From assembly GCF_001677475.2 (NCBI RefSeq), contig NZ_CP015229.1: DNA of 64,000 nucleotides. One strand, 5' to 3'. Positions within the stretch are counted from its first letter, which is position 1, and each line of letters starts with the position of its first letter. The position numbers and the translations under genes were made by a program. The notes under the pieces were generated by a model. It saw only the letters and a list, made by a program, of their open reading frames with translations, had not been told where the DNA came from and ran no database searches. This DNA is from Escherichia coli (GTDB lineage: Bacteria > Pseudomonadota > Gammaproteobacteria > Enterobacterales > Enterobacteriaceae). Shown here piece by piece: positions 15,280 to 30,011 of this stretch.

Positions 15280-17193
15280 ATGTCATCCGATATTAAGATC
15301 AAAGTGCAAAGCTTTGGTCGTTTCCTCAGCAACATGGTGATGCCAAATATCGGCGCGTTTATCGCGTGGGGTATCATCACCGCGTTATTTATTCCAACAG
15401 GGTGGTTACCGAACGAAACGCTGGCGAAGCTGGTCGGGCCGATGATCACTTATCTCCTGCCGCTGCTGATCGGTTATACCGGTGGTAAGCTGGTAGGCGG
15501 CGAACGTGGCGGCGTAGTCGGTGCCATTACCACCATGGGCGTTATCGTCGGCGCAGACATGCCGATGTTCCTCGGTTCTATGATTGCAGGTCCGCTGGGC
15601 GGCTGGTGCATTAAGCACTTCGACCGCTGGGTAGACGGTAAGATCAAATCCGGTTTTGAGATGCTGGTGAATAACTTCTCCGCAGGCATCATCGGGATGA
15701 TCCTCGCTATTCTGGCATTCCTCGGCATTGGCCCGATTGTTGAAGCCCTGTCCAAAATGCTGGCTGCGGGCGTTAACTTCATGGTTGTCCATGACATGCT
15801 GCCGCTGGCGTCTATCTTTGTTGAACCGGCGAAAATCCTGTTCCTCAACAACGCCATTAACCACGGTATCTTCTCGCCGCTGGGCATTCAGCAGTCCCAT
15901 GAACTGGGTAAATCCATCTTCTTCCTGATTGAAGCTAACCCAGGTCCAGGTATGGGCGTGCTGCTGGCGTACATGTTCTTTGGTCGTGGCAGTGCTAAAC
16001 AATCTGCGGGCGGTGCGGCAATCATCCACTTCCTGGGTGGTATCCACGAAATCTACTTCCCGTATGTGCTGATGAATCCGCGTCTGATTCTGGCCGTTAT
16101 TCTCGGCGGTATGACTGGCGTGTTCACGCTAACTATCCTGGGCGGTGGTCTGGTTTCTCCGGCATCTCCAGGTTCTATCCTTGCGGTACTGGCGATGACA
16201 CCAAAAGGTGCTTATTTCGCTAACATCGCGGGTGTGTGTGCGGCGATGGCTGTCTCCTTCGTTGTCTCTGCTATTTTGCTGAAAACCAGCAAAGTGAAAG
16301 AAGAAGATGATATTGAAGCAGCAACTCGTCGTATGCAGGACATGAAAGCTGAGTCTAAAGGTGCGTCTCCGCTGTCTGCGGGCGATGTGACTAACGACCT
16401 GAGCCACGTACGTAAAATCATCGTTGCCTGTGACGCCGGTATGGGTTCCAGTGCAATGGGCGCAGGCGTGCTGCGTAAGAAAATTCAGGATGCAGGTCTG
16501 TCGCAGATTTCGGTCACTAACAGCGCGATCAACAACCTGCCGCCAGATGTGGACCTGGTCATCACTCACCGTGACCTGACCGAACGCGCTATGCGCCAGG
16601 TTCCGCAGGCACAGCATATTTCGCTGACCAACTTCCTCGACAGCGGCTTGTACACCAGCCTGACCGAACGTCTGGTTGCTGCCCAGCGCCATACTGAAAA
16701 CGAAGTAAAAGTGAAAGACAGTCTGAAAGACAGCTTTGACGATTCCAGTGCTAACCTGTTCAAGCTAGGCGCGGAGAACATCTTCCTCGGTCGCAAAGCG
16801 GCCACCAAAGAAGAAGCGATTCGTTTTGCTGGCGAGCAACTGGTGAAAGGCGGTTACGTTGAGCCGGAATATGTTCAGGCGATGCTGGATCGTGAAAAAC
16901 TGACCCCGACTTATCTGGGTGAGTCTATCGCGGTGCCACACGGTACGGTTGAAGCGAAAGATCGCGTACTCAAAACGGGCGTCGTGTTCTGCCAGTACCC
17001 GGAAGGCGTACGCTTCGGTGAAGAAGAAGATGACATTGCCCGTCTGGTGATTGGTATTGCTGCCCGTAACAACGAGCACATTCAGGTTATAACCAGCCTG
17101 ACCAATGCACTGGATGATGAGACTGTCATCGAGCGTCTGGCACACACCACCAGCGTGGATGAAGTGCTGGAACTGCTGGCAGGTCGTAAGTAA
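15280..17193 (+). CDS. mtlA: PTS mannitol-specific EIICBA component
   Basis: 637-aa ORF; membrane EIIC domain followed by EIIB and EIIA domains. Confidence 0.95.
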   Translation: MSSDIKIKVQSFGRFLSNMVMPNIGAFIAWGIITALFIPTGWLPNETLAKLVGPMITYLLPLLIGYTGGKLVGGERGGVVGAITTMGVIVGADMPMFLGSMIAGPLGGWCIKHFDRWVDGKIKSGFEMLVNNFSAGIIGMILAILAFLGIGPIVEALSKMLAAGVNFMVVHDMLPLASIFVEPAKILFLNNAINHGIFSPLGIQQSHELGKSIFFLIEANPGPGMGVLLAYMFFGRGSAKQSAGGAAIIHFLGGIHEIYFPYVLMNPRLILAVILGGMTGVFTLTILGGGLVSPASPGSILAVLAMTPKGAYFANIAGVCAAMAVSFVVSAILLKTSKVKEEDDIEAATRRMQDMKAESKGASPLSAGDVTNDLSHVRKIIVACDAGMGSSAMGAGVLRKKIQDAGLSQISVTNSAINNLPPDVDLVITHRDLTERAMRQVPQAQHISLTNFLDSGLYTSLTERLVAAQRHTENEVKVKDSLKDSFDDSSANLFKLGAENIFLGRKAATKEEAIRFAGEQLVKGGYVEPEYVQAMLDREKLTPTYLGESIAVPHGTVEAKDRVLKTGVVFCQYPEGVRFGEEEDDIARLVIGIAARNNEHIQVITSLTNALDDETVIERLAHTTSVDEVLELLAGRK

Positions 17194-17199
17194 TCCAAT

Positions 17200-17385
<186 letters not shown>

Positions 17386-17421
17386 CCCTCTCGGGTAAAA
17401 ACATTGATGAAGGTTAATACT

Positions 17422-18570
17422 ATGAAAGCATTACATTTTGGCGCAGGTAATATCGGTCGTGGCTTTATCGGTAAACTGCTGGCAGACGCGGGTATCCAAC
17501 TGACGTTTGCCGATGTCAATCAGGTGGTACTTGATGCCCTGAATGCCCGTCATAGCTATCAGGTTCATGTGGTCGGTGAAACCGAGCAGGTAGATACCGT
17601 TTCCGGCGTCAATGCCGTCAGCAGCATTGGTGATGATGTCGTTGATCTGATTGCTCAGGTTGATTTAGTCACTACCGCCGTTGGTCCGGTTGTGCTGGAA
17701 CGTATTGCCCCGGCAATCGCCAAAGGGCTGGTGAAACGTAAAGAACAAGGTAATGAATCCCCGCTGAACATCATCGCTTGTGAAAACATGGTCCGCGGCA
17801 CCACACAGCTGAAAGGCCATGTGATGAACGCCCTGCCGGAAGATGCCAAAGCGTGGGTAGAAGAACACGTTGGCTTTGTTGATTCCGCCGTTGACCGCAT
17901 CGTGCCGCCTTCGGCTTCTGCAACCAACGATCCGCTGGAAGTGACGGTAGAAACATTCAGCGAATGGATTGTCGATAAAACTCAGTTCAAAGGCACGCTG
18001 CCAAACATTCCTGGTATGGAGTTAACCGACAACCTGATGGCGTTTGTCGAACGTAAACTCTTCACCCTGAACACGGGTCATGCTATAACCGCGTACCTCG
18101 GAAAACTGGCCGGTCATCAGACCATTCGTGACGCTATTCTCGACGAGAAAATCCGCGCGGTGGTTAAAGGTGCGATGGAAGAAAGTGGTGCAGTATTGAT
18201 CAAGCGCTACGGCTTTGACGCTGACAAGCATGCGGCGTACATCCAGAAAATCCTCGGCCGTTTCGAGAACCCGTATCTGAAAGATGATGTAGAGCGCGTA
18301 GGCCGTCAGCCGCTGCGTAAACTGAGTGCTGGCGACCGTCTGATCAAGCCACTGCTGGGTACGCTGGAATACGGCCTTCCGCACAAGAATCTGATTCAGG
18401 GGATTGCTGGTGCAATGCACTTCCGCAGTGAAGATGATCCGCAGGCTCAGGAGCTGGCAGCACTGATCGCTGACAAAGGCCCGCAGGCGGCGCTGGCACA
18501 GATTTCCGGTCTTGATGCCAACAGCGAGGTTGTATCCGAGGCGGTAACCGCTTATAAAGCAATGCAATAA
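17422..18570 (+). CDS. mtlD: Mannitol-1-phosphate 5-dehydrogenase
   Basis: Track ORF starts at 17239 inside the REP region; conserved start is ATG 17422 ([17 protein letters not shown]… NAD-binding motif), 382 aa. Confidence 0.95.
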
Positions 18571-19157
18571 TGGTGGACCAGGCGCAGGACACCCTGCGCC
18601 CGAATAACAGATTGTCAGATATGCAGGCAACAATGGAACAAACCCAGGCCTTTGAAAACCGTGTGCTTGAGCGTCTGAATGCTGGCAAAACCGTGCGAAG
18701 CTTTCTGATCACCGCCGTCGAGCTTTTGACCGAGGCGGTAAATCTTCTGGTGCTTCAGGTATTCCGCAAAGACGATTACGCGGTGAAGTATGCTGTAGAA
18801 CCGTTACTCGACGGCGACGGTCCGCTGGGCGATCTTTCTGTGCGTTTAAAACTCATTTACGGGTTGGGTGTCATTAACCGCCAGGAATACGAAGATGCGG
18901 AGCTACTGATGGCATTGCGTGAAGAGCTAAATCACGACGGCAACGAGTACGCGTTTACCGATGATGAAATCCTTGGACCCTTTGGTGAACTGCATTGCGT
19001 GGCGGCGTTACCACCGCCGCCACAGTTTGAACTTGCAGACGCCAGTTTGTATGCAATGCAAATTCAGCGTTACCAACAGGCTGTGCGATCAACAATGGTC
19101 CTTTCACTGACAGAGCTGATTTCCAAAATCAGCTTAAAAAAAGCCTTTCAAAAGTAA
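18570..19157 (+). CDS. mtlR: Mannitol operon repressor
   Basis: 195-aa ORF; ATG overlaps the mtlD TAA (taATGg). Confidence 0.9.
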   Translation: MVDQAQDTLRPNNRLSDMQATMEQTQAFENRVLERLNAGKTVRSFLITAVELLTEAVNLLVLQVFRKDDYAVKYAVEPLLDGDGPLGDLSVRLKLIYGLGVINRQEYEDAELLMALREELNHDGNEYAFTDDEILGPFGELHCVAALPPPPQFELADASLYAMQIQRYQQAVRSTMVLSLTELISKISLKKAFQK

Positions 19158-19167
19158 GTACTTTCGC

Positions 19168-19377
19168 TTACTTCTCCTCTACCTGTTTCGGCCGATAAAG
19201 CCGACGATAATACTCCAGACGTTGTAGATATAACGGCACGCTTTCATCAGGTATTCCGGACGGAATCGCGTTACGGGGAGGTAGTTTTTTCAGATACTCC
19301 CGGAACGCCTGGCTGGATGCCATGAAATCTACGGCTTTATCGATAAGAAGCGGAACGTTTTCACCTAATTTGCCCAT
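19168..19377 (-). CDS. yibT: Small protein YibT
   Basis: 69-aa ORF ([39 protein letters not shown]…) convergent with mtlR. Confidence 0.75.
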
Positions 19378-19660
19378 GATGATATCTCCGAATTACCCCG
19401 CGCCGGGAATGCGCGGCCGCCAATTTTAGTTTAGATCCCGGTATAAATGACATTAAGGAAAACGTGCTCAATCCTCAATAATCATCCGCTTCTGTTAATT
19501 ATCTTTTTTCTATAAATTTCTTAGTTAATCAACAAATTGCGTGCTTTTTAAGCAAGTTAATGATTACGTTATAGAACTATTGCAATGTCATCAGTTGTGA
19601 ACAAAGCACCTGGTCGCGCATACTAGGGGCTATAAATTTATCTTTATCAGAAGTCATCAC

Positions 19661-20023
19661 ATGAAAGAAGTCGAAAAAAACGAAATCAAACGTCTCAGCG
19701 ATCGTCTGGACGCCATCCGTCACCAGCAGGCCGATCTGTCGCTGGTTGAAGCCGCAGACAAATATGCCGAACTGGAAAAAGAGAAAGCTACGCTGGAAGC
19801 TGAAATTGCCCGCCTGCGTGAAGTTCATAGCCAGAAACTCAGCAAAGAAGCACAAAAGCTGATGAAGATGCCGTTCCAGCGTGCGATTACCAAAAAAGAA
19901 CAAGCCGATATGGGTAAGCTGAAGAAGAGTGTCCGTGGGTTAGTCGTAGTGCATCCGATGACCGCACTGGGTCGTGAAATGGGTCTGCAAGAGATGACCG
20001 GGTTCTCAAAGACAGCGTTTTAA
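19661..20023 (+). CDS. yibL: DUF2810-family protein YibL
   Basis: 120-aa ORF ([42 protein letters not shown]…). Confidence 0.85.
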
Positions 20024-20048
20024 CCCTCTTACCTGTATATCTCCCTCA

Positions 20049-20074
20049 CATCCCGCGTTTCTAAATGCGGGATG
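20049..20074 (+). terminator. Candidate stem-loop downstream of yibL
   Basis: Perfect 8-bp stem catcccgc/gcgggatg with a 10-nt loop, 26 nt after the yibL stop; T-rich stretch follows only after ~20 nt. Confidence 0.35.
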
Positions 20075-20513
20075 CAACAAATATCCTCCTCTTTTTCCTC
20101 TGTTACCTCGTAGAGTCTACTTTTTACCAATGGCACTAAATCTGAAAATGCATTCAGTAAAAGGTTTGGTTCGACGCCTAAAAATGGAAGATATCATTCA
20201 TAAAATAAAACTTTTGCCGTTATTTTTTCCATCTACATTCTAAAAACTCACCCAAAACATTTATTGTGTGAATATTAAATGAAAGCTATTTTTCTGCTTT
20301 AAATGCAGTGTTTGACATCTGATAACCCTCCTCATTAAAATCCGCCTCCCTAACACAATTAAACAATTTTAAAACTTAATAAATAATTTTCATAACAAAT
20401 ATATTCGCAACATTCATAAAGCCAGCCGTATAAATCGCAAAAGCATCAACCACAAATGGACACATCCCTTAGACCGCGTTGGTATCAGGGATGATATGTA
20501 AGGATAACTTTAT

Positions 20514-21197
20514 ATGAAAGTGAATAAATTATTGATAAGCGTCCTGGCGGCTTCGACAATACTGATGCTGTCAGGTTGTGATTACGTCGAAAAAACGAAA
20601 GTCGTTGATGAACTCACAAAACAACAAGAAGAACAAAAGGCCAGAATTGATCAACTCGAAAAACGATTAGAACAAGAAACCAAAAAGACAAACACCATTG
20701 AAAAACAAAGCATTAGTCTGATAAACAGTACAAAGCTGCTGGCTCAGGTAGTGAAAGAGATTAAGCATCAGCAAGATACATTTGTCTTTACTGAATTTAA
20801 CCCCGATCAAACAAAATATTTCATTTTAAATAACGGTTCGGTAGGTATTGCCGGCAGGGTGTTATCTGTTGAAGCAATAGAAAATGGCAGTGTTATTCAT
20901 ATGTCATTGGCCAATTTATTAAGTGTTCCCGTATCAAATATTGGTTTTCATGCCACCTGGGGCGGTGAAAGACCGGGTGATCAAAAAGAATATGCCAAAT
21001 GGCAACAACTGCTATTTAGCACCAACATGAACTCCACGCTGAAATTATTACCAGGTCAATGGCAAGACATTAACTTGACGTTAAAAGGGGTGTCTCCCAA
21101 CAACCTGAAATACCTGAAGTTGGCTATTAATATGCAGAATATCAACTTCGACAACCTTCCACCTGCTGATAACCGGCAGAAAAAAAGCAAAAAATAA
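20514..21197 (+). CDS. Inner-membrane lipoprotein, SadB-like putative helper of trimeric autotransporter biogenesis
   Basis: 227 aa; signal peptide with lipobox LSGC then Asp at +2 (C22-D23, inner-membrane retention); charged coiled-coil segment (QQEEQKARIDQLEKRLEQETKK); 43 bp upstream of the adhesin gene on the same strand; AAGGA 9 nt before the ATG. Function assigned by analogy with Salmonella sadB-sadA. Confidence 0.7.
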   Translation: MKVNKLLISVLAASTILMLSGCDYVEKTKVVDELTKQQEEQKARIDQLEKRLEQETKKTNTIEKQSISLINSTKLLAQVVKEIKHQQDTFVFTEFNPDQTKYFILNNGSVGIAGRVLSVEAIENGSVIHMSLANLLSVPVSNIGFHATWGGERPGDQKEYAKWQQLLFSTNMNSTLKLLPGQWQDINLTLKGVSPNNLKYLKLAINMQNINFDNLPPADNRQKKSKK

Positions 21198-21240
21198 ATG
21201 CAGTCATTGCACTTATATCAAGGAATAGAGAGCAACAACA

Positions 21241-24200
21241 ATGAACAAAATTTTTAAAGTTATCTGGAACCCTGCGACGGGAAGTTACAGCGTCGCCAGC
21301 GAAACGGCAAAAAGCCGTGGAAAGAAGAGCGGTCGCAGCAAGCTGTTAATTTCTGCGTTGGTTGCCGGTGGGTTGCTGTCGTCGTTCGGGGCGAGTGCTT
21401 CTGTCAGTCTTGATGGTGGTACATATTCTGATGGCACCGAACTTACTGATGCATGGATTGCTATTGGTAAAGGTGCGAAAGCTTCCTCTGTAGGCGGTAG
21501 CACAGCAAGTATTTCTATTGGGGTAAATGCAATCTCTGCTGCTGGGGCTACTGCAGTGGGTTATAACAGTAATGCTACTGGACAAAGTTCAGTATCAATG
21601 GGGCAGCTATCGAAAGCCACAGGGAGCAGGGGGGTTGCTATCGGCAGTGGAGCTAGTGCCATTGGCGACTATACAGTTGCATTAGCGGTTGGCTCCAGTG
21701 CTAGCGGTGAGAGTGCAGTGGCAATAGGTCAAGGTTCCGGAGCCAAAAATAAAGGTAGTGTTGCGTTAGGTAACAGAGCGTCATCATTAGGAGAAAAATC
21801 GGTAGCACTAGGGGTAGACAGTAAGGCCACTGGTGACGATAGCCTGGCATTAGGTAGAAACGCCTTGGGCAATAGCACAGGTTCCATTGCAATGGGTGCC
21901 GCAAGCGAAGCCAATGGATTATATAGTTTGGCATTAGGCGCAAGCAGCGTAGCTAACGCGGACAATACCGTTGCGCTCGGATATGGTGCCAATGCAGCCA
22001 AAGCTGGAGCAATGGCTTTCGGTCAGGCAGGAAAGGCAGATGGTGTAAATTCTATTGCGCTGGGTAATAAAAGTCAGTCAAGCGGCGAAAACAGTATTGT
22101 GCTTGGACAAGAAAGCTATGCTGGTAGTGAAAAAAGTATTGCGATTGGTAGCCTGTCCAACGTAACCGGTGTTAACTCCGTTGCTCTGGGCACAGAGTCT
22201 ACTGCCGTGGAAGATAATACTGTTTCAGTAGGTAACGACACGCTGCAGCGTAAAATTGTCCATATGGGAAAAGGCGATATTAGCAGTACCAGTACTGATG
22301 CCATCAATGGTTCACAGCTTTATGATATCAGTAAGTCAGTTGCAGACCGTCTGGGCGGCGGTGCCTCCGTGAGTACTGCCGGGGTTGTTAACGCCCCTAA
22401 CTACAAACTGCAAAGTGGTAACTTTAATAATGTTGGCGACGCATTAAAGGGTCTTGATGATAATACGTTGCAATGGGACTCGCTTAAAAAAGTCTACAGT
22501 GCAAAACACGGTTCCGATGCCACCAGCAAAATCACCAACGTTACGGCGGGTGAGCTGAACGCATCCAGTACCGACGCCGTTAACGGTTCTCAGTTGAAAA
22601 CCACTAACGACAATGTGGCAACCAACACCACTAATATCAGCAACCTGACCGGCGAAGTTGCTAACAACACCACCAATATCACTAACCTGACGAATGATGT
22701 TGCCGCCAACACCACCAGTATCACCAACCTGGCTGATACGGTGACTAACCTTGGTGAAGATGCGCTGAAATGGGATGACACCGCTGGCGTATTCACTGCT
22801 GCACACGGCACCGAAGCCACCAACAAAATCACCAATGTTACGGCAGGTGAGCTGACGGAGACCAGTACCGATGCGGTTAACGGTTCTCAGTTGAAAACCA
22901 CTAACGATAACGTGGCAACCAACACCACCAGTATCACCAACCTGACTGATACAGTGACTAACCTTGGTGCCGACGCGCTGGCATGGGATGACGCCTCAGG
23001 TGCATTCACCGCCAAACACGGCACCGAAGCCACCAACAAAATCACTAACGTTACGGCAGGTGAACTGACGGAGACCAGTACCGATGCCGTTAACGGTTCT
23101 CAGTTGAAAACCACTAACGATAACGTGGCAACCAACACCACCAATATCAGCAACCTGACCGGCGAAGTTGCTAACAACACCACCAACATCACTAACCTGA
23201 CGAATGATGTTGCCGCCAACACCACCAGTATCACCAACCTGGCTGATACGGTGACTAACCTTGGTGCCGACGCGCTGGCATGGGATGACGCCTCAGGTGC
23301 ATTCACCGCCAAACACGGCACCGAAGCCACCAACAAAATCACTAACGTTACGGCGGGTGAGCTGACGGAGACCAGTACTGATGCCGTTAACGGTTCTCAG
23401 TTAAAAACCACTAACGACAATGTGGCAACCAACACCACCAACATCACCAATCTGGCTGATACGGTGAACAACCTCGGTGAAGATGCGCTGAAATGGGATG
23501 ACGCCGCAAGCGCATTCACCGCTGCACACGGCACCGAAGCCACCAGCAAAATCACTAACGTCACCGCTGGAACAATCTCGTCTACCAGTACCGACGCTGT
23601 TAACGGTGGGCAACTCTTTAGCTTAAGTGATTCACTGGCAGACTATTTTGGCGGTAACGCCTCGGTTGATGAAAACGGTGTATTTACTGGCCCGTCCTAC
23701 ACCATCGGTAGCAACAGCTACGATAACGTAGGTGATGCGCTGGCGGCGATTAACACCTCCTTTAGCACTTCACTGGGCGACGCTCTGCTGTGGGATGAAA
23801 CGGCAAGTGCATTCAGCGCCGGCCACGGTGGCAATGCCAGCAAAATTACCAATGTCGCAAACGGTACTATTTCTGAAACCAGCACCGATGCCATCAATGG
23901 TGGGCAACTCTACGGTGTGAGCAACTCTGTTGTTGATGCCCTGGGCGGTGGCGCCGCAGTAAATGCTGACGGTAGCATCAGTGCGCCGACGTACTCCATT
24001 GCTGATACCGATTACAATAACGTCGGTGATGCTCTGGACGCGATCGACTCAACCCTGGATGATGCGCTGCTCTGGGACGCAACCGCCGGTGAAAATGGTG
24101 CGTTCAGCGCCAGCCGCGATGGCAAAGCCAGCGTAATCACTAATGTTGCTAATGGTGATATTTCTGAAACCAGTACTGATGCAATTAATGGTTCACAGTT

Positions 24201-25905
24201 GTTCGCCACCAACACGTTGATCAATCAGCAAAATGAGATCATCAACCAGATTGCCGGTAATACCAGCACAGACTACATCGAAGAGAACGGTGCGGGTCTG
24301 AACTATGCGCGTACTAATGACACCGGCTTAACCTTTATTGATGCGAGCGCATCAGGTACTGGCGCTACAGCGGTGGGTTATAACGCTGTCGCTTCCGGCG
24401 AAAGCAGTGTCGCAATTGGTCAGAATAGCAGCAGCAGCGTTGATACTGGTATCGCGCTGGGTAGCGAATCCGTCTCCAGCCGTGTGATTGTTAAAGGTTC
24501 TCGTAACACCAGCGTAACCGAAGAAGGCGTTGTGATTGGTTACGACACCACTGACGGCGAACTGCTTGGTGCATTGTCGATTGGCGATGATGGTAAGTAC
24601 CGTCAGATCATCAACGTTGCTGATGGTACTGAATCCCATGACGCCGTGACTGTACGCCAGTTGCAAAACGCCATTGGTGCGGTCGCCACTACGCCGACCA
24701 AGTACTACCATGCCAACTCAACGGAAGAAGATTCACTGGCGGTAGGTACTGACTCGCTGGCGATGGGCGCGAAAACTATCGTCAATGGTAATGCGGGTAT
24801 TGGTATCGGCCTGAATACTCTGGTTCTGGCAGATGCCATCAACGGTATTGCTATCGGTTCTAACGCACGCGCCAACCATGCAAACAGTATTGCAATGGGT
24901 AATGGTTCTCAGACCACTCGCGGCGCTCAGACTGGCTACACCGCCTACAACATGGACGCGCCGCAGAACTCTGTCGGTGAGTTCTCTGTCGGCAGTGAAG
25001 ACGGTCAACGTCAGATCACTAATGTCGCGGCGGGTTCGGCAGATACCGATGCCGTTAACGTTGGTCAGTTGAAAGTGACGGACGCACAGGTTTCCCAGAA
25101 CACCCAGAGCATTACTAACCTGAATACTCAGGTAACGAATCTGGATACCCGCGTCACCAATATCGAAAACGGTATTGGCGATATCGTAAGCACCGGTAGC
25201 ACCAAGTACTTCAAGACCAACACCGATGGCGTAGATGCTAACGCGCAGGGTAAAGACAGTGTTGCGATTGGCTCTGGCTCTATTGCTGCCGCTGATAACA
25301 GCGTTGCGCTGGGTACTGGCTCTGTGGCAAACGAAGAAAATACGATCTCCGTAGGTTCTTCCACTAACCAACGCCGTATCACCAACGTTGCCGCTGGTAA
25401 AAATGCTACTGACGCGGTTAACGTTGCGCAGTTGAAGTCTTCCGAAGCAGGCGGCGTGCGCTATGACACCAAAGCTGACGGTTCTGTTGATTACAGCAAC
25501 ATCACTCTCGGCGGTGGTAATGGCGGAACGACTCGCATCAGCAACGTTTCCGCTGGCGTTAACAACAACGACGCGGTGAACTACGCGCAGTTGAAGCAAA
25601 GCGTGCAGGAAACGAAGCAATACACCGATCAGCGCATGGTTGAGATGGATAACAAACTGTCCAAAACCGAAAGCAAGTTGAGCGGTGGTATCGCTTCTGC
25701 AATGGCGATGACCGGTCTGCCGCAGGCTTACACGCCAGGTGCCAGCATGGCCTCCATTGGTGGCGGTACATACAACGGTGAATCGGCTGTTGCTTTAGGT
25801 GTGTCGATGGTGAGCGCCAACGGTCGTTGGGTCTACAAATTACAAGGTAGTACCAATAGCCAGGGTGAATACTCCGCCGCACTTGGTGCCGGTATTCAGT
25901 GGTAA
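21241..25905 (+). CDS. upaG: Trimeric autotransporter adhesin (YadA-like), UpaG/EhaG family
   Basis: 1554-aa ORF; extended signal peptide [21 protein letters not shown]…; YadA-like head repeats (…SVALG.NS.A.G…); long Thr/Asn-rich repetitive stalk; C-terminal membrane-anchor domain ending …AALGAGIQW. Confidence 0.9.
22561..23580 (+). repeat. Intragenic tandem duplication in the adhesin stalk (2 x ~510 bp)
   Basis: 22561-23070 and 23071-23580 align co-linearly; the first ~300 bp of each copy differ at only a few positions, the remainder is ~85% similar. Further divergent stalk repeats with 210-300 bp spacing extend to ~24240. Confidence 0.7.
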
Positions 25906-25937
25906 TGACCCATTAACAAATGGGTAAACGCCAAATT

Positions 25938-26020
25938 GCCTGATGCGCTACGCTTATCAGGCCTACAGGGGATTCTGCACATTCCTGTAGGCCGGATAAG
26001 GCGTTCACGCCGCATCCGGC
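25938..26020. repeat. REP pair (BIME) downstream of the adhesin gene
   Basis: gcctgatgcgctacgcttatcaggcctac (25938-25966) and gtaggccggataaggcgttcacgccgcatccggc (25987-26020). Confidence 0.65.
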
Positions 26021-26106
26021 AAGATAAGACGCACCAGGTCAATGGTCTAAGGGCAATTCTCTGACGGGGATTGCCCTTTTCTTTACCAGACATCTCCCTA
26101 TCAAAA

Positions 26107-26249
26107 AATTGGCCCTACCAATTCTTCGCTTATCTGACCACTGGTTCACAGTTCCCCAATTAAAACTCACATTAACGTTGCCAATACAAAACATTTAGTT
26201 AACTATTCATTGTCATTATCCCTACACAACAAAATTGGCAGTGCCACTT
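26107..26249 (+). promoter_or_regulatory. lldPRD control region with two LldR-type operators
   Basis: Palindrome AATTGGccctaCCAATT at 26107-26123 and related AATTGGcagtgCCActT at 26233-26249, ~200 and ~75 bp upstream of lldP ATG 26322. Confidence 0.5.
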
Positions 26250-26321
26250 TTACACAACGTGTGACAAGGAGATGAGCAACAGACTCATTACACGATGTGC
26301 GTGGCCTCCAGGAGACCTGCA

Positions 26322-27977
26322 ATGAATCTCTGGCAACAAAACTACGATCCCGCCGGGAATATCTGGCTTTCCAGCCTGATAGCATCGCTTCCCATCCTGT
26401 TTTTTTTCTTTGCGCTTATTAAGCTCAAACTAAAAGGCTATGTCGCCGCTACATGGACAGTCGTTATCGCTCTGACTGTCGCGCTATTGTTCTACAAAAT
26501 GCCGGTCGCCAATGCGCTGGCCTCAGTGGTTTATGGCTTCTTCTACGGTTTGTGGCCCATCGCGTGGATCATTATTGCAGCGGTGTTCGTCTATAAGATC
26601 TCGGTGAAAACCGGACAGTTTGACATCATCCGCTCGTCTATTCTTTCAATAACCCCTGACCAGCGCCTGCAAATGCTGATCGTCGGTTTCTGTTTCGGCG
26701 CATTTCTCGAAGGTGCCGCAGGCTTTGGCGCACCGGTAGCAATTACCGCCGCATTGCTGGTCGGGCTGGGCTTTAAACCGCTGTACGCCGCCGGGCTGTG
26801 CCTGATTGTTAACACCGCGCCGGTGGCATTTGGCGCGATGGGTATTCCGATTCTGGTTGCCGGACAGGTAACAGGCATCGACAGCTTTGAGATTGGCCAG
26901 ATGGTGGGACGTCAGCTACCGTTTATGACCATTATCGTGCTGTTCTGGATCATGGCGATTATGGACGGCTGGCGGGGTATCAAAGAGACGTGGCCTGCGG
27001 TCGTGGTCGCGGGAGGCTCGTTTGCCATCGCACAGTACCTTAGCTCTAACTTTATTGGGCCGGAACTGCCGGACATTATCTCTTCGCTGGTATCGCTGCT
27101 CTGCCTGACACTGTTCCTCAAACGTTGGCAGCCGGTGCGCGTTTTCCGCTTCGGCGATCTGGGCGCATCGCAAGTTGATATGACGCTGGCTCATACCGGT
27201 TACACCGCAGGTCAGGTGTTACGCGCCTGGACACCGTTCCTGTTCCTGACCGCCACCGTAACGCTGTGGAGTATTCCGCCGTTTAAAGCCCTGTTCGCTT
27301 CGGGTGGTGCGCTGTATGAATGGGTGATCAATATTCCGGTGCCGTACCTCAATAAACTGGTTGCCCGTATGCCGCCAGTGGTCAGCGAAGCGACAGCGTA
27401 TGCCGCCGTGTTTAAGTTCGACTGGTTCTCTGCCACCGGTACCGCCATTCTTTTTGCTGCCCTGCTCTCGATTGTCTGGCTGAAGATGAAACCATCTGAC
27501 GCTATCAGCACCTTCGGCAGCACGCTGAAAGAACTGGCTCTGCCCATCTACTCCATCGGTATGGTGCTGGCGTTCGCCTTTATCTCGAACTATTCCGGAC
27601 TATCATCAACGCTGGCGCTGGCACTGGCGCACACCGGCCATGCATTCACCTTCTTCTCGCCGTTCCTCGGCTGGCTTGGTGTCTTCCTGACCGGATCGGA
27701 TACCTCATCTAACGCCCTGTTCGCCGCCCTGCAAGCCACTGCAGCACAACAAATTGGCGTTTCTGACCTGTTGTTGGTTGCCGCCAACACCACCGGTGGT
27801 GTCACCGGTAAGATGATCTCTCCGCAATCTATCGCTATCGCCTGTGCGGCGGTAGGCCTGGTAGGCAAAGAGTCAGATCTGTTCCGCTTTACCGTCAAAC
27901 ACAGCCTGATCTTCACCTGTATGGTGGGCGTGATTACCACGCTTCAGGCCTACGTCTTAACGTGGATGATTCCGTAA
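26322..27977 (+). CDS. lldP: L-lactate permease
   Basis: Track ORF from 26295; conserved start ATG 26322 ([15 protein letters not shown]…) after AGGAG; 551 aa, multi-TM. Confidence 0.95.
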
Positions 27978-28753
27978 TGATGGTTATACCCAGACGCCTG
28001 TCAGACGAGGTAGCTTCCCGTGTGCGGGCGCTGATTGAAGAACAAAATCTGGAACCGGGCATGAAGTTGCCCGCTGAACGCCAACTGGCGATGCAGCTCG
28101 GCGTGTCGCGTAATTCACTGCGCGAGGCGCTGGCGAAACTGGTGAGTGAAGGTGTGCTTCTTAGTCGTCGCGGTGGCGGGACGTTTATTCGCTGGCGCCA
28201 TGACGTGTGGTCGGAACAAAACATCGTCCAGCCGCTGAAAACGCTAATGGCCGATGATCCGGATTACAGCTTCGATATTCTGGAAGCCCGCTACGCCATT
28301 GAGGCCAGCACCGCCTGGCACGCAGCAATGCGTGCCACACAAGCCGATAAAGAAAAGATACAGCTCTGCTTTGAAGCGACGCTGAGTGAAGACCCGGATC
28401 TCGCCTCGCAAGCGGACGTTCGTTTTCATCTGGCAATTGCCGAAGCCTCACATAACATCGTGCTGCTGCAAACCATGCGCGGTTTCTTTGATGTCCTGCA
28501 ATCTTCAGTGATGCAAAGTCGTCAGCGGATGTATCTGGTGCCGCCCGTTTTTTCGCAACTGACTGAACAGCATCAGGCGGTCATTAACGCCATTTTTGCC
28601 GGTGATGCCGACGGTGCGCGTAAAGCAATGATGTCGCACCTCAGCTTTGTCCACACCACCATGAAACGATTCGATGAAGATCAGGCTCGCCGTGCACGCA
28701 TTACCCGCCTGCCCGGTGAGCATAATGAGCATTCGAGGGAGAAAAACGCATGA
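27977..28753 (+). CDS. lldR: GntR/FadR-family L-lactate regulator
   Basis: Start taken at ATG 27977 ([11 protein letters not shown]…), overlapping the lldP stop by 1 nt, 258 aa; N-terminal wHTH. Confidence 0.9.
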
Positions 28754-29940
28754 TTATTTCCGCAGCCAGCGATTATCGCGCCGCAGCGCAACGCATTTTG
28801 CCGCCGTTCCTGTTCCACTATATGGATGGTGGTGCATATTCTGAATACACGCTGCGCCGCAACGTGGAGGATTTGTCAGAAGTGGCGCTGCGCCAGCGTA
28901 TTCTGAAAAACATGTCCGACTTAAGCCTGGAAACGACGCTGTTTAATGAGAAATTGTCGATGCCAGTGGCGCTGGCTCCGGTGGGTTTGTGCGGCATGTA
29001 TGCGCGTCGCGGCGAAGTTCAGGCAGCCAAAGCGGCTGATGCGCATGGCATTCCGTTTACTCTCTCAACGGTTTCAGTTTGCCCGATTGAAGAAGTCGCT
29101 CCAGCTATCAAACGTCCGATGTGGTTCCAGCTTTATGTGCTGCGCGATCGCGGCTTTATGCGTAACGCACTGGAACGGGCAAAAGCGGCGGGCTGTTCGA
29201 CACTGGTTTTCACCGTGGATATGCCGACGCCAGGCGCACGTTATCGTGACGCACACTCCGGTATGAGCGGCCCGAATGCCGCAATGCGCCGCTACTTGCA
29301 GGCGGTGACGCATCCGCAATGGGCGTGGGATGTCGGCCTGAACGGTCGTCCACATGATTTAGGTAATATTTCGGCTTACCTCGGCAAACCGACCGGACTG
29401 GAAGATTACATCGGCTGGCTGGGGAATAACTTCGATCCGTCCATCTCATGGAAAGACCTTGAGTGGATCCGCGATTTCTGGGATGGCCCGATGGTGATCA
29501 AAGGGATCCTCGACCCGGAAGATGCGCGTGATGCAGTACGTTTTGGTGCTGACGGGATTGTGGTTTCTAACCACGGTGGCCGCCAGCTGGACGGTGTACT
29601 CTCTTCCGCTCGTGCGCTGCCCGCTATTGCGGATGCGGTAAAAGGTGATATCGCCATTCTGGCGGATAGCGGGATTCGTAACGGGCTTGATGTCGTGCGT
29701 ATGATTGCGCTCGGTGCCGACACCGTACTGCTGGGTCGTGCTTTCCTGTATGCGCTGGCAACAGCGGGCCAGGCGGGTGTAGCTAACCTGCTGAATCTGA
29801 TCGAAAAAGAGATGAAAGTGGCAATGACGCTGACTGGCGCGAAATCGATTAGCGAAATTACGCAAGATTCGCTGGTGCAGGGGCTGGATAAAGAGTTGCC
29901 TGCGGCACTGGCTCCGATGGCGAAAGGGAATGCGGCATAG
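28750..29940 (+). CDS. lldD: FMN-dependent L-lactate dehydrogenase
   Basis: 396-aa ORF, alpha-hydroxy acid oxidase family (…[10 protein letters not shown]…). Confidence 0.95.
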
Positions 29941-30011
29941 TTGGGGTGAGGGGAAAAGGCCGTACCAATCACCAATTTTCTGCTATCCTGCCCCCGCACT
30001 AAGGGGGCAGT

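Follow-up and report, generated by a model that had tools for sequence, protein, structure and literature searches.

The window described here is a stretch of 64,000 nucleotides, in which the genes of interest follow one another in the order yibL, sadB, a 43-bp spacer, an adhesin gene and lldP. The features of this locus and the evidence on which each is based are as follows:

20024-25962, strand not applicable: sadB-adhesin module of 5.9 kb, absent from K-12, which carries 11 bp instead (BLAST).
20312-20341, plus strand: candidate sigma-70-like promoter, TTGACA-18-TAAAAT, 11/12 consensus positions; the best match in the AT-rich 490-bp region 5' of sadB.
20500-20504, plus strand: AAGGA, a Shine-Dalgarno-like motif 9 nt 5' of the sadB ATG (direct reading of the sequence).
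20514-21197, plus strand: sadB orthologue, encoding a lipoprotein precursor of 227 aa; the coordinates include the stop codon (open reading frame and match to PDB 4C47).
20514-20579, plus strand: predicted signal peptide, residues 1-22, with the lipobox L-S-G-C at its end (invariance among homologues, likeness to SadB).
20580-20582, plus strand: Asp23, the +2 residue and putative Lol-avoidance or inner-membrane retention signal (invariance, Salmonella SadB).
20580-20783, plus strand: predicted coiled-coil stalk, residues 23-90, about nine and a half heptads (heptad register, shuffles, AlphaFold helix 23-89).
20784-21167, plus strand: predicted C-terminal beta-sandwich domain (AlphaFold strands, Foldseek matches to 4C47 and 2JWY, conservation).
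21168-21194, plus strand: Lys/Arg-rich C-terminal tail, residues 219-227 (ending in RQKKSKK), predicted to be disordered (pLDDT < 50).
21198-21240, plus strand: 43-bp spacer between sadB and the adhesin gene, with no terminator-like site; the same spacing occurs in four other genomes.
21241-25905, plus strand: trimeric autotransporter adhesin of 1554 aa, orthologue of SadA, UpaG and EhaG (Pfam, NCBIfam, RefSeq names at the homologous locus, repeats).
26049-26078, plus strand: terminator-like hairpin followed by a T-run, a candidate end of the operon (consensus match only).

The sadB gene is an intact open reading frame of 227 codons on the plus strand that starts at the first start codon (ATG) past a stop. 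Its product begins with MKVNKLLISVLAASTILM-LSGC-DY, and the start of the precursor can be written as MKVNKLLISVLAASTILMLSGC followed by DYVEK. An n-region with two lysines precedes a hydrophobic core, and the N-terminus as a whole conforms to a PROSITE-type lipoprotein rule. The initial annotation had pointed to a lipobox LSGC with Asp at position +2. We could confirm this assignment: the lipobox comprises residues 19-22 (nucleotides 20568-20579), Cys22 is followed by Asp23 at +2 and by Tyr at +3, and Gly21, Cys22 and Asp23 are invariant among 20 homologues that are 61-97% identical to the window protein. The mature protein is predicted to begin with Cys22 and to carry its lipid there. This lipoprotein assignment draws on signal-peptide rules, on invariance among the homologues and on homology to a SadB protein with experimentally demonstrated lipidation. 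The sequence signal for retention is present, and the protein is predicted to reside in the inner membrane.

The residues that follow the lipobox had been described as a highly charged, heptad-like segment, and this description was borne out. The 68 residues from 23 to 90 are 38% charged and 71% polar, and they follow a single unbroken heptad register with hydrophobic residues at 12 of the 20 a and d positions. Just 0.3% of 20,000 shuffles of the segment reached this count (a fraction of 0.003), which places the register above chance, and AlphaFold models a helix over residues 23-89. The core positions read YVQILTSTVQ (a) and KLQLEILLIF (d), with polar residues (Gln, Thr, Ser) at several of them. 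The register is the same as that of Salmonella SadB, and the segment aligns to the crystallographic coiled coil of that protein. The corresponding core of Salmonella SadB (a, YVQIQIQTVQ; d, DMQLQLIVVF) contains more Gln than that of the window protein. Length differences among the SadB homologues all fall within the coil (alignment columns 43-66, window residues about 43-65), save for a four-residue gap in one protein (P0096), which is also the only gap in the C-terminal domain among the homologues aligned. The deletions in the coil comprise 14 residues, equivalent to two heptads (in E. albertii-type proteins and one other), 10 residues and 3 residues.

A phmmer search against all PDB chains returned a single match, 4C47 ("inner membrane lipoprotein"), with E = 5.3e-70. 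This entry is the crystal structure of SadB from Salmonella enterica, the protein named by Grin et al. (2014, J Biol Chem 289:7388; PMC3953254). Residues 23-227 of the window protein align without a gap to residues 3-207 of 4C47, and a profile built from the 20 homologues matches the same structure with E = 2.3e-85. The mature protein is 50% identical to Salmonella SadB, with a lower value in the coil (37%) and a higher one in the C-terminal domain (57%). An AlphaFold2 monomer model based on the 20-sequence alignment (mean pLDDT 70; 74-89 over most of the C-terminal domain) consists of a signal-peptide helix, one long helix at residues 23-89 and an eight-stranded beta-sandwich (strands 92-95, 102-106, 111-122, 125-134, 140-150, 170-178, 183-191 and 200-206). 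A short helix (157-164) sits in a long loop of the modelled sandwich, as has been described for SadB. Comparison of this model with the PDB by Foldseek ranked the three chains A-C of 4C47 first (E = 5e-21 to 1e-19, 51-52% identity) and YajI (2JWY) second (E = 1e-4), with no other match below 1e-3. The structure prediction thus returned the long helix and beta-sandwich of SadB, with 4C47 and then 2JWY as the best PDB matches. The model superimposes on 4C47 with TM-scores of 0.5-0.6 and an rmsd of about 7 Å, values that are modest probably because the angle between helix and domain differs in the monomer model. Most of the invariant columns of the 20-homologue alignment fall in the C-terminal domain, a conserved part that presumably contacts the substrate. 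The basic C-terminal tail is also found in SadB and its homologues.

Some of these homologues carry the name "DUF3251 domain-containing protein" in RefSeq. Pfam-A did not reproduce this name, since a scan of the window protein gave no match to DUF3251 (PF11622) even at E <= 10. As a control, the same library scores K-12 YajI at 4.8e-90 for this family. Sub-threshold Pfam-A matches to coiled-coil families were dismissed as noise, and so were NCBIfam matches of the signal peptide and coil to PRK11530, EexN and Lpp/OprI, which lie far under the curated cut-offs. Pfam seems to lack a family for proteins of the SadB type: hardly any of the matches listed has an entry in the precomputed Pfam column. 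Alignment of the SadB alignment to YajI by hhalign gave a probability of 5% across 24 columns and hence no usable link at the sequence level. The relation between SadB and YajI is visible at the level of the fold alone, and it is the fold on which their paralogy is based. Like SadB, E. coli YajI (PDB 2JWY, Pfam DUF3251) is a lipoprotein in which a helical segment at the N-terminus precedes a C-terminal beta-sandwich, and the two sandwiches have the same strand topology according to Grin et al. (PMC3953254). In contrast to the window protein, to which it is about 14% identical, K-12 YajI (L007 6313-6852) has Val at the +2 position (LSAC-VQQ) instead of the Asp that is invariant in the SadB family, and its gene does not lie next to an autotransporter gene. 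Because of this +2 residue, YajI is probably an outer-membrane lipoprotein and SadB an inner-membrane one, as inferred from the +2 rule.

The gene that follows sadB encodes a protein with an ESPR extended signal peptide (Pfam, E = 7e-16) and a YadA anchor (E = 4e-19), together with YadA head repeats and at least eleven YadA stalk motifs. This adhesin (21241-25905) is the presumed client of SadB. Since the 43-bp spacer between the two genes contains no terminator-like site, the layout predicts a sadB-adhesin operon. The region upstream of sadB has a GC content of 33-36%, and sadB itself is also AT-rich (36-40% GC) and lies in a variable region. In our scan for promoters and terminators, sites were no more frequent than in shuffled sequences; the promoter and terminator named above are therefore listed as candidates. 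An Rfam scan of the whole 64,000-nt window gave no match in or near the sadB locus. The adhesin stalk (22492-23607) contains direct repeats of 213 and 297 nt. Genomes with an identical SadB protein encode adhesins of 1455, 1582 and 1848 aa, compared with 1554 aa here, and these adhesins (1455 to 1848 aa) differ mainly in the number of stalk repeats. The variation in adhesin length thus appears to be driven by repeats. In one genome with identical SadB (L003), gene calling splits the adhesin into pieces of 507 and 921 aa.

An identical 227-aa protein is recorded at NCBI (ANO91552.1 is one example), and the assembly collection has it in 87 blocks. The four loci shown with the identical protein all have the same neighbours and the same 43-bp spacer. 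The search gave 180 homologues in total, most of the 120 listed being of similar length. The expectation that the gene would rarely be annotated with a function was broadly right: the names in the sources are "hypothetical protein", "DUF3251 domain-containing protein" or, more recently, "SadB/YajI family lipoprotein". At the same position in O157:H7, RefSeq lists a "SadB/YajI family lipoprotein" and "ehaG". The homologue in O157:H7 strain RV06 (L001 5911-6579) is annotated with 222 aa, five codons short and with Ile as the first codon. This start is probably mis-called, because related 227-aa proteins begin with MNLKK five codons upstream.

In K-12 MG1655, lldP directly follows yibL, and neither sadB nor the adhesin gene is present. 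The absence of the gene from K-12, also part of the initial annotation, is therefore established: 20024-25962 is replaced by 11 bp. This result agrees with the report by Grin et al. that a 5-kb deletion in K-12 removes both genes (PMC3953254). The left junction of the deletion (20023/20024) lies immediately past the yibL stop codon. Its right end lies in a REP-like inverted repeat (25953-26000; 17-nt arms, 94% complementary), about half of which is retained in K-12.

Salmonella SadB is likewise a 227-aa precursor with a lipobox at Cys22 and a mature start C-D-Y, and the two proteins also agree in the register and approximate length (about nine heptads) of the coil, in the beta-sandwich at the C-terminus and in the basic tail. 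In both organisms the gene lies between the mtl and lld operons, 5' of a gene for an ESPR-bearing autotransporter, and the spacer to the adhesin gene is 43 bp here and 44 bp in Salmonella. The common E. coli and Shigella SadB proteins encoded upstream of upaG or ehaG have the same locus, partner, architecture and invariant G-C-D, whereas the window SadB belongs to a rarer allele lineage that is 65-69% identical to them in protein and about 77% in DNA. The earlier suggestion of a SadB-type helper architecture is thus supported by the homology to 4C47, the fold, the sorting signal and the position in the operon. We conclude that the gene is very probably what Salmonella sadB is in its own genus, the leading gene of a pair that forms a sadB-adhesin operon, and hence the Escherichia orthologue, and that it probably works by a SadB-like mechanism. 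The window gene and its product show the homology, the lipobox with Asp at +2, the coil register, the fold and the place in the operon that define SadB; trimer formation and function would be carried over from Salmonella.

Several properties of the Salmonella protein bear on how the window protein may work. Salmonella SadB is tri-acylated on its N-terminal cysteine (Cys22) and fractionates with the inner membrane, as predicted from Asp at +2 (PMC3953254). In the crystal it forms a trimer through a nine-heptad coiled coil with a polar core, which carries three beta-sandwich domains with a MATH-like topology common with YajI (PMC3953254). SadB increases surface display of the adhesin SadA 4- to 6-fold and improves its resistance to protease (PMC3953254), and Sang et al. 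(2024) confirmed the effect on display, at roughly three-fold (PMC11054257). Neither phage display nor cross-linking revealed direct binding between SadB and SadA, SadB failed to form trimers in solution, and the Salmonella sadBA genes were silent under all laboratory conditions tried (PMC3953254). UpaG is cited, at second hand, as repressed by H-NS. The gene is conserved 5' of the adhesin gene in Salmonella, Shigella and Escherichia (PMC3953254), and a 2026 preprint that surveyed autotransporter neighbourhoods by guilt by association counts 106 SadB homologues beside trimeric autotransporters, all in Enterobacterales. Co-transcription with a trimeric autotransporter and an increase in surface display are also properties of TpgA, the helper of AtaA in Acinetobacter sp. 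Tol 5. This protein is unrelated to SadB: it has BamE-like and OmpA-like domains, occurs as a monomer and works at the outer membrane and peptidoglycan.

Based on these precedents, we propose that Sec would export the window SadB precursor, which would then receive its lipid on Cys22 and be cut by signal peptidase II. Asp at +2 would prevent hand-over to Lol, so that the protein would stay in the outer leaflet of the inner membrane. Three copies concentrated in the membrane may then join through a weak coil of about nine and a half heptads with several polar core positions. This stalk, if fully helical, would hold three beta-sandwich domains roughly 10 nm into the periplasm, where they would bind, weakly and transiently, three unfolded adhesin chains. 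For its part, the client may be slowed at the inner membrane by the ESPR, its extended signal peptide. In this way the adhesin chains could be aligned in register ahead of their BAM-dependent insertion and export, which would result in more and better surface adhesin. Into this scheme the present analysis brings the orthology, the sorting signals, the fold, the operon layout and the constraint on the C-terminal domain. Lipidation, inner-membrane location, the trimer and the 3- to 6-fold gain in display would be transferred from the Salmonella protein studied by Grin et al. (2014) and Sang et al. (2024), with which the window allele shares 50% identity, and 37% in the coil. The step of substrate binding and trimerisation is one that we infer, as the original authors did.

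The sadB allele of the window is uncommon. A megablast search against 5,426 complete E. coli genomes did not find this allele at 90% DNA identity or above; the best matches in these genomes are at about 77-83%. A look-up located the exact protein in GenBank and in draft assemblies. Among the matches listed, the common E. coli and Shigella proteins are those quoted above at 65-69%, and the closest named relatives outside the own cluster are from E. marmotae (91%) and E. ruysiae (88%). The own cluster at 90% identity contains proteins labelled E. coli, E. ruysiae and unclassified Escherichia. The flanks are 95.2% (mtlD to yibL, 17001-20023) and 93.2% (lldP to lldD, 25963-29941) identical to K-12, and their best match in any complete E. 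coli genome is 96.6%. From these sequence comparisons the window probably derives from a divergent Escherichia lineage and not from a typical E. coli.

Comparison of 19661-25905 with the locus of E. coli O157:H7 (L001) reveals a gradient of synonymous divergence:

mtlR: dS 0.10.
yibL: dS 0.64.
sadB: dS 1.8, saturated.
Adhesin N-terminus: dS 1.2.
Adhesin C-terminus: dS 0.60.

Therefore, the operon represents an old and possibly exchanged allele lineage in a much younger backbone. Such a divergent allele fits a surface-antigen locus and leaves the functional reading unaffected. Within sadB, dN/dS relative to the O157 allele is 0.07 in the C-terminal domain and 0.35 in the coil, with dS saturated. 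The coiled coil evolves much faster than the C-terminal domain, and the value of 0.07 indicates strong purifying selection on the latter.

These differences could be taken to mean that SadB alleles are partner-specific, the helper having co-diversified with the variable N-terminal part or passenger of the adhesin. This idea is motivated by the saturated dS in sadB and the adhesin N-terminus, compared with 0.10 in mtlR. The fast-evolving coil, with its deletions of 14, 10 and 3 residues, would then tune the reach of the binding domains into the periplasm, and helpers would not be interchangeable between lineages. We regard partner specificity as unlikely. The data do not specifically support it, and one identical SadB serves adhesins of 1455 to 1848 aa. 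Divergent natural sadB alleles could serve as ready-made material for cross-complementation experiments on specificity.

The main rival to the reading of the gene as a trimer-templating helper concerns the mechanism and not the identity of SadB. The protein could help the adhesin without templating its trimerisation, namely by retention at the inner membrane that slows export, by recruitment of BAM or TAM, by protection from DegP, or by clustering of the adhesin at foci. The trimerisation model rests only on a structural analogy with the MATH domains of TRAF2, and phage display yielded only generic peptides with alternating polar and hydrophobic residues (PMC3953254). As an alternative to trimer templating, reviews mention that the client may be held longer at the inner membrane, and SadB shifted the surface pattern of SadA from diffuse to clustered (PMC3953254). 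On the other hand, the match of a trimeric helper to a trimeric client is conserved, and the heptad register has been kept despite a coil identity of 37%. Moreover, surface SadA is more sensitive to protease in the absence of SadB (PMC3953254), which points to a defect in folding or register and not in quantity alone. On balance, we consider help without templating improbable.

Slightly less probable still is the possibility that SadB is a general envelope lipoprotein of the SadB/YajI fold with a job unrelated to the adhesin, with whose gene it would merely travel. No direct interaction between SadB and SadA has been demonstrated (PMC3953254), the paralogue YajI has no linkage to an autotransporter, and identical SadB persists in the genome (L003) in which the adhesin gene is called in two pieces of 507 and 921 aa. 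Yet sadB and the adhesin gene come and go as a pair, as the K-12 deletion illustrates, and a spacing of 43-44 bp has been kept from Salmonella to the window. SadB homologues were also recovered by the guilt-by-association survey of autotransporter neighbourhoods, and in two independent laboratories the presence of SadB raised surface SadA 3- to 6-fold (PMC3953254, PMC11054257). A decaying remnant or a chance open reading frame with a lipobox-like motif, which the AT-rich gene (36-40% GC) in a variable region and the lack of a significant family match in Pfam-A and NCBIfam might suggest, has a negligible chance of being correct and is refuted by the conservation and selection data: a full-length open reading frame of identical sequence in 87 collection blocks, 180 homologues of which the 120 listed are mostly of similar length, a dN/dS of 0.07 in the C-terminal domain and homology to 4C47 at E = 5e-70.

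The system is already known: the Escherichia orthologues and the loss of both genes from K-12 were published in 2014, which the initial annotation did not mention. Since Grin et al. had described SadB, its conservation and the K-12 deletion, the present finding is a correct re-discovery, of little importance other than for annotation. The proper name of the gene is sadB, and it should be described as the inner-membrane helper lipoprotein of an adhesin of the UpaG/EhaG/SadA type, rather than "hypothetical" or "DUF3251". For expression of adhesins from this lineage, as in surface display or vaccine work, this sadB should be co-expressed.

The only Rfam match in the window lies far from the sadB locus. 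It is a JUMPstart RNA (RF01707; 55758-55796, minus strand) that scores 53 bits against a gathering score of 35. Read along the minus strand, this element lies ahead of a series of open reading frames with the same orientation, and it looks ordinary. From their position we would guess that the open reading frames after it belong to the LPS core (waa) cluster.
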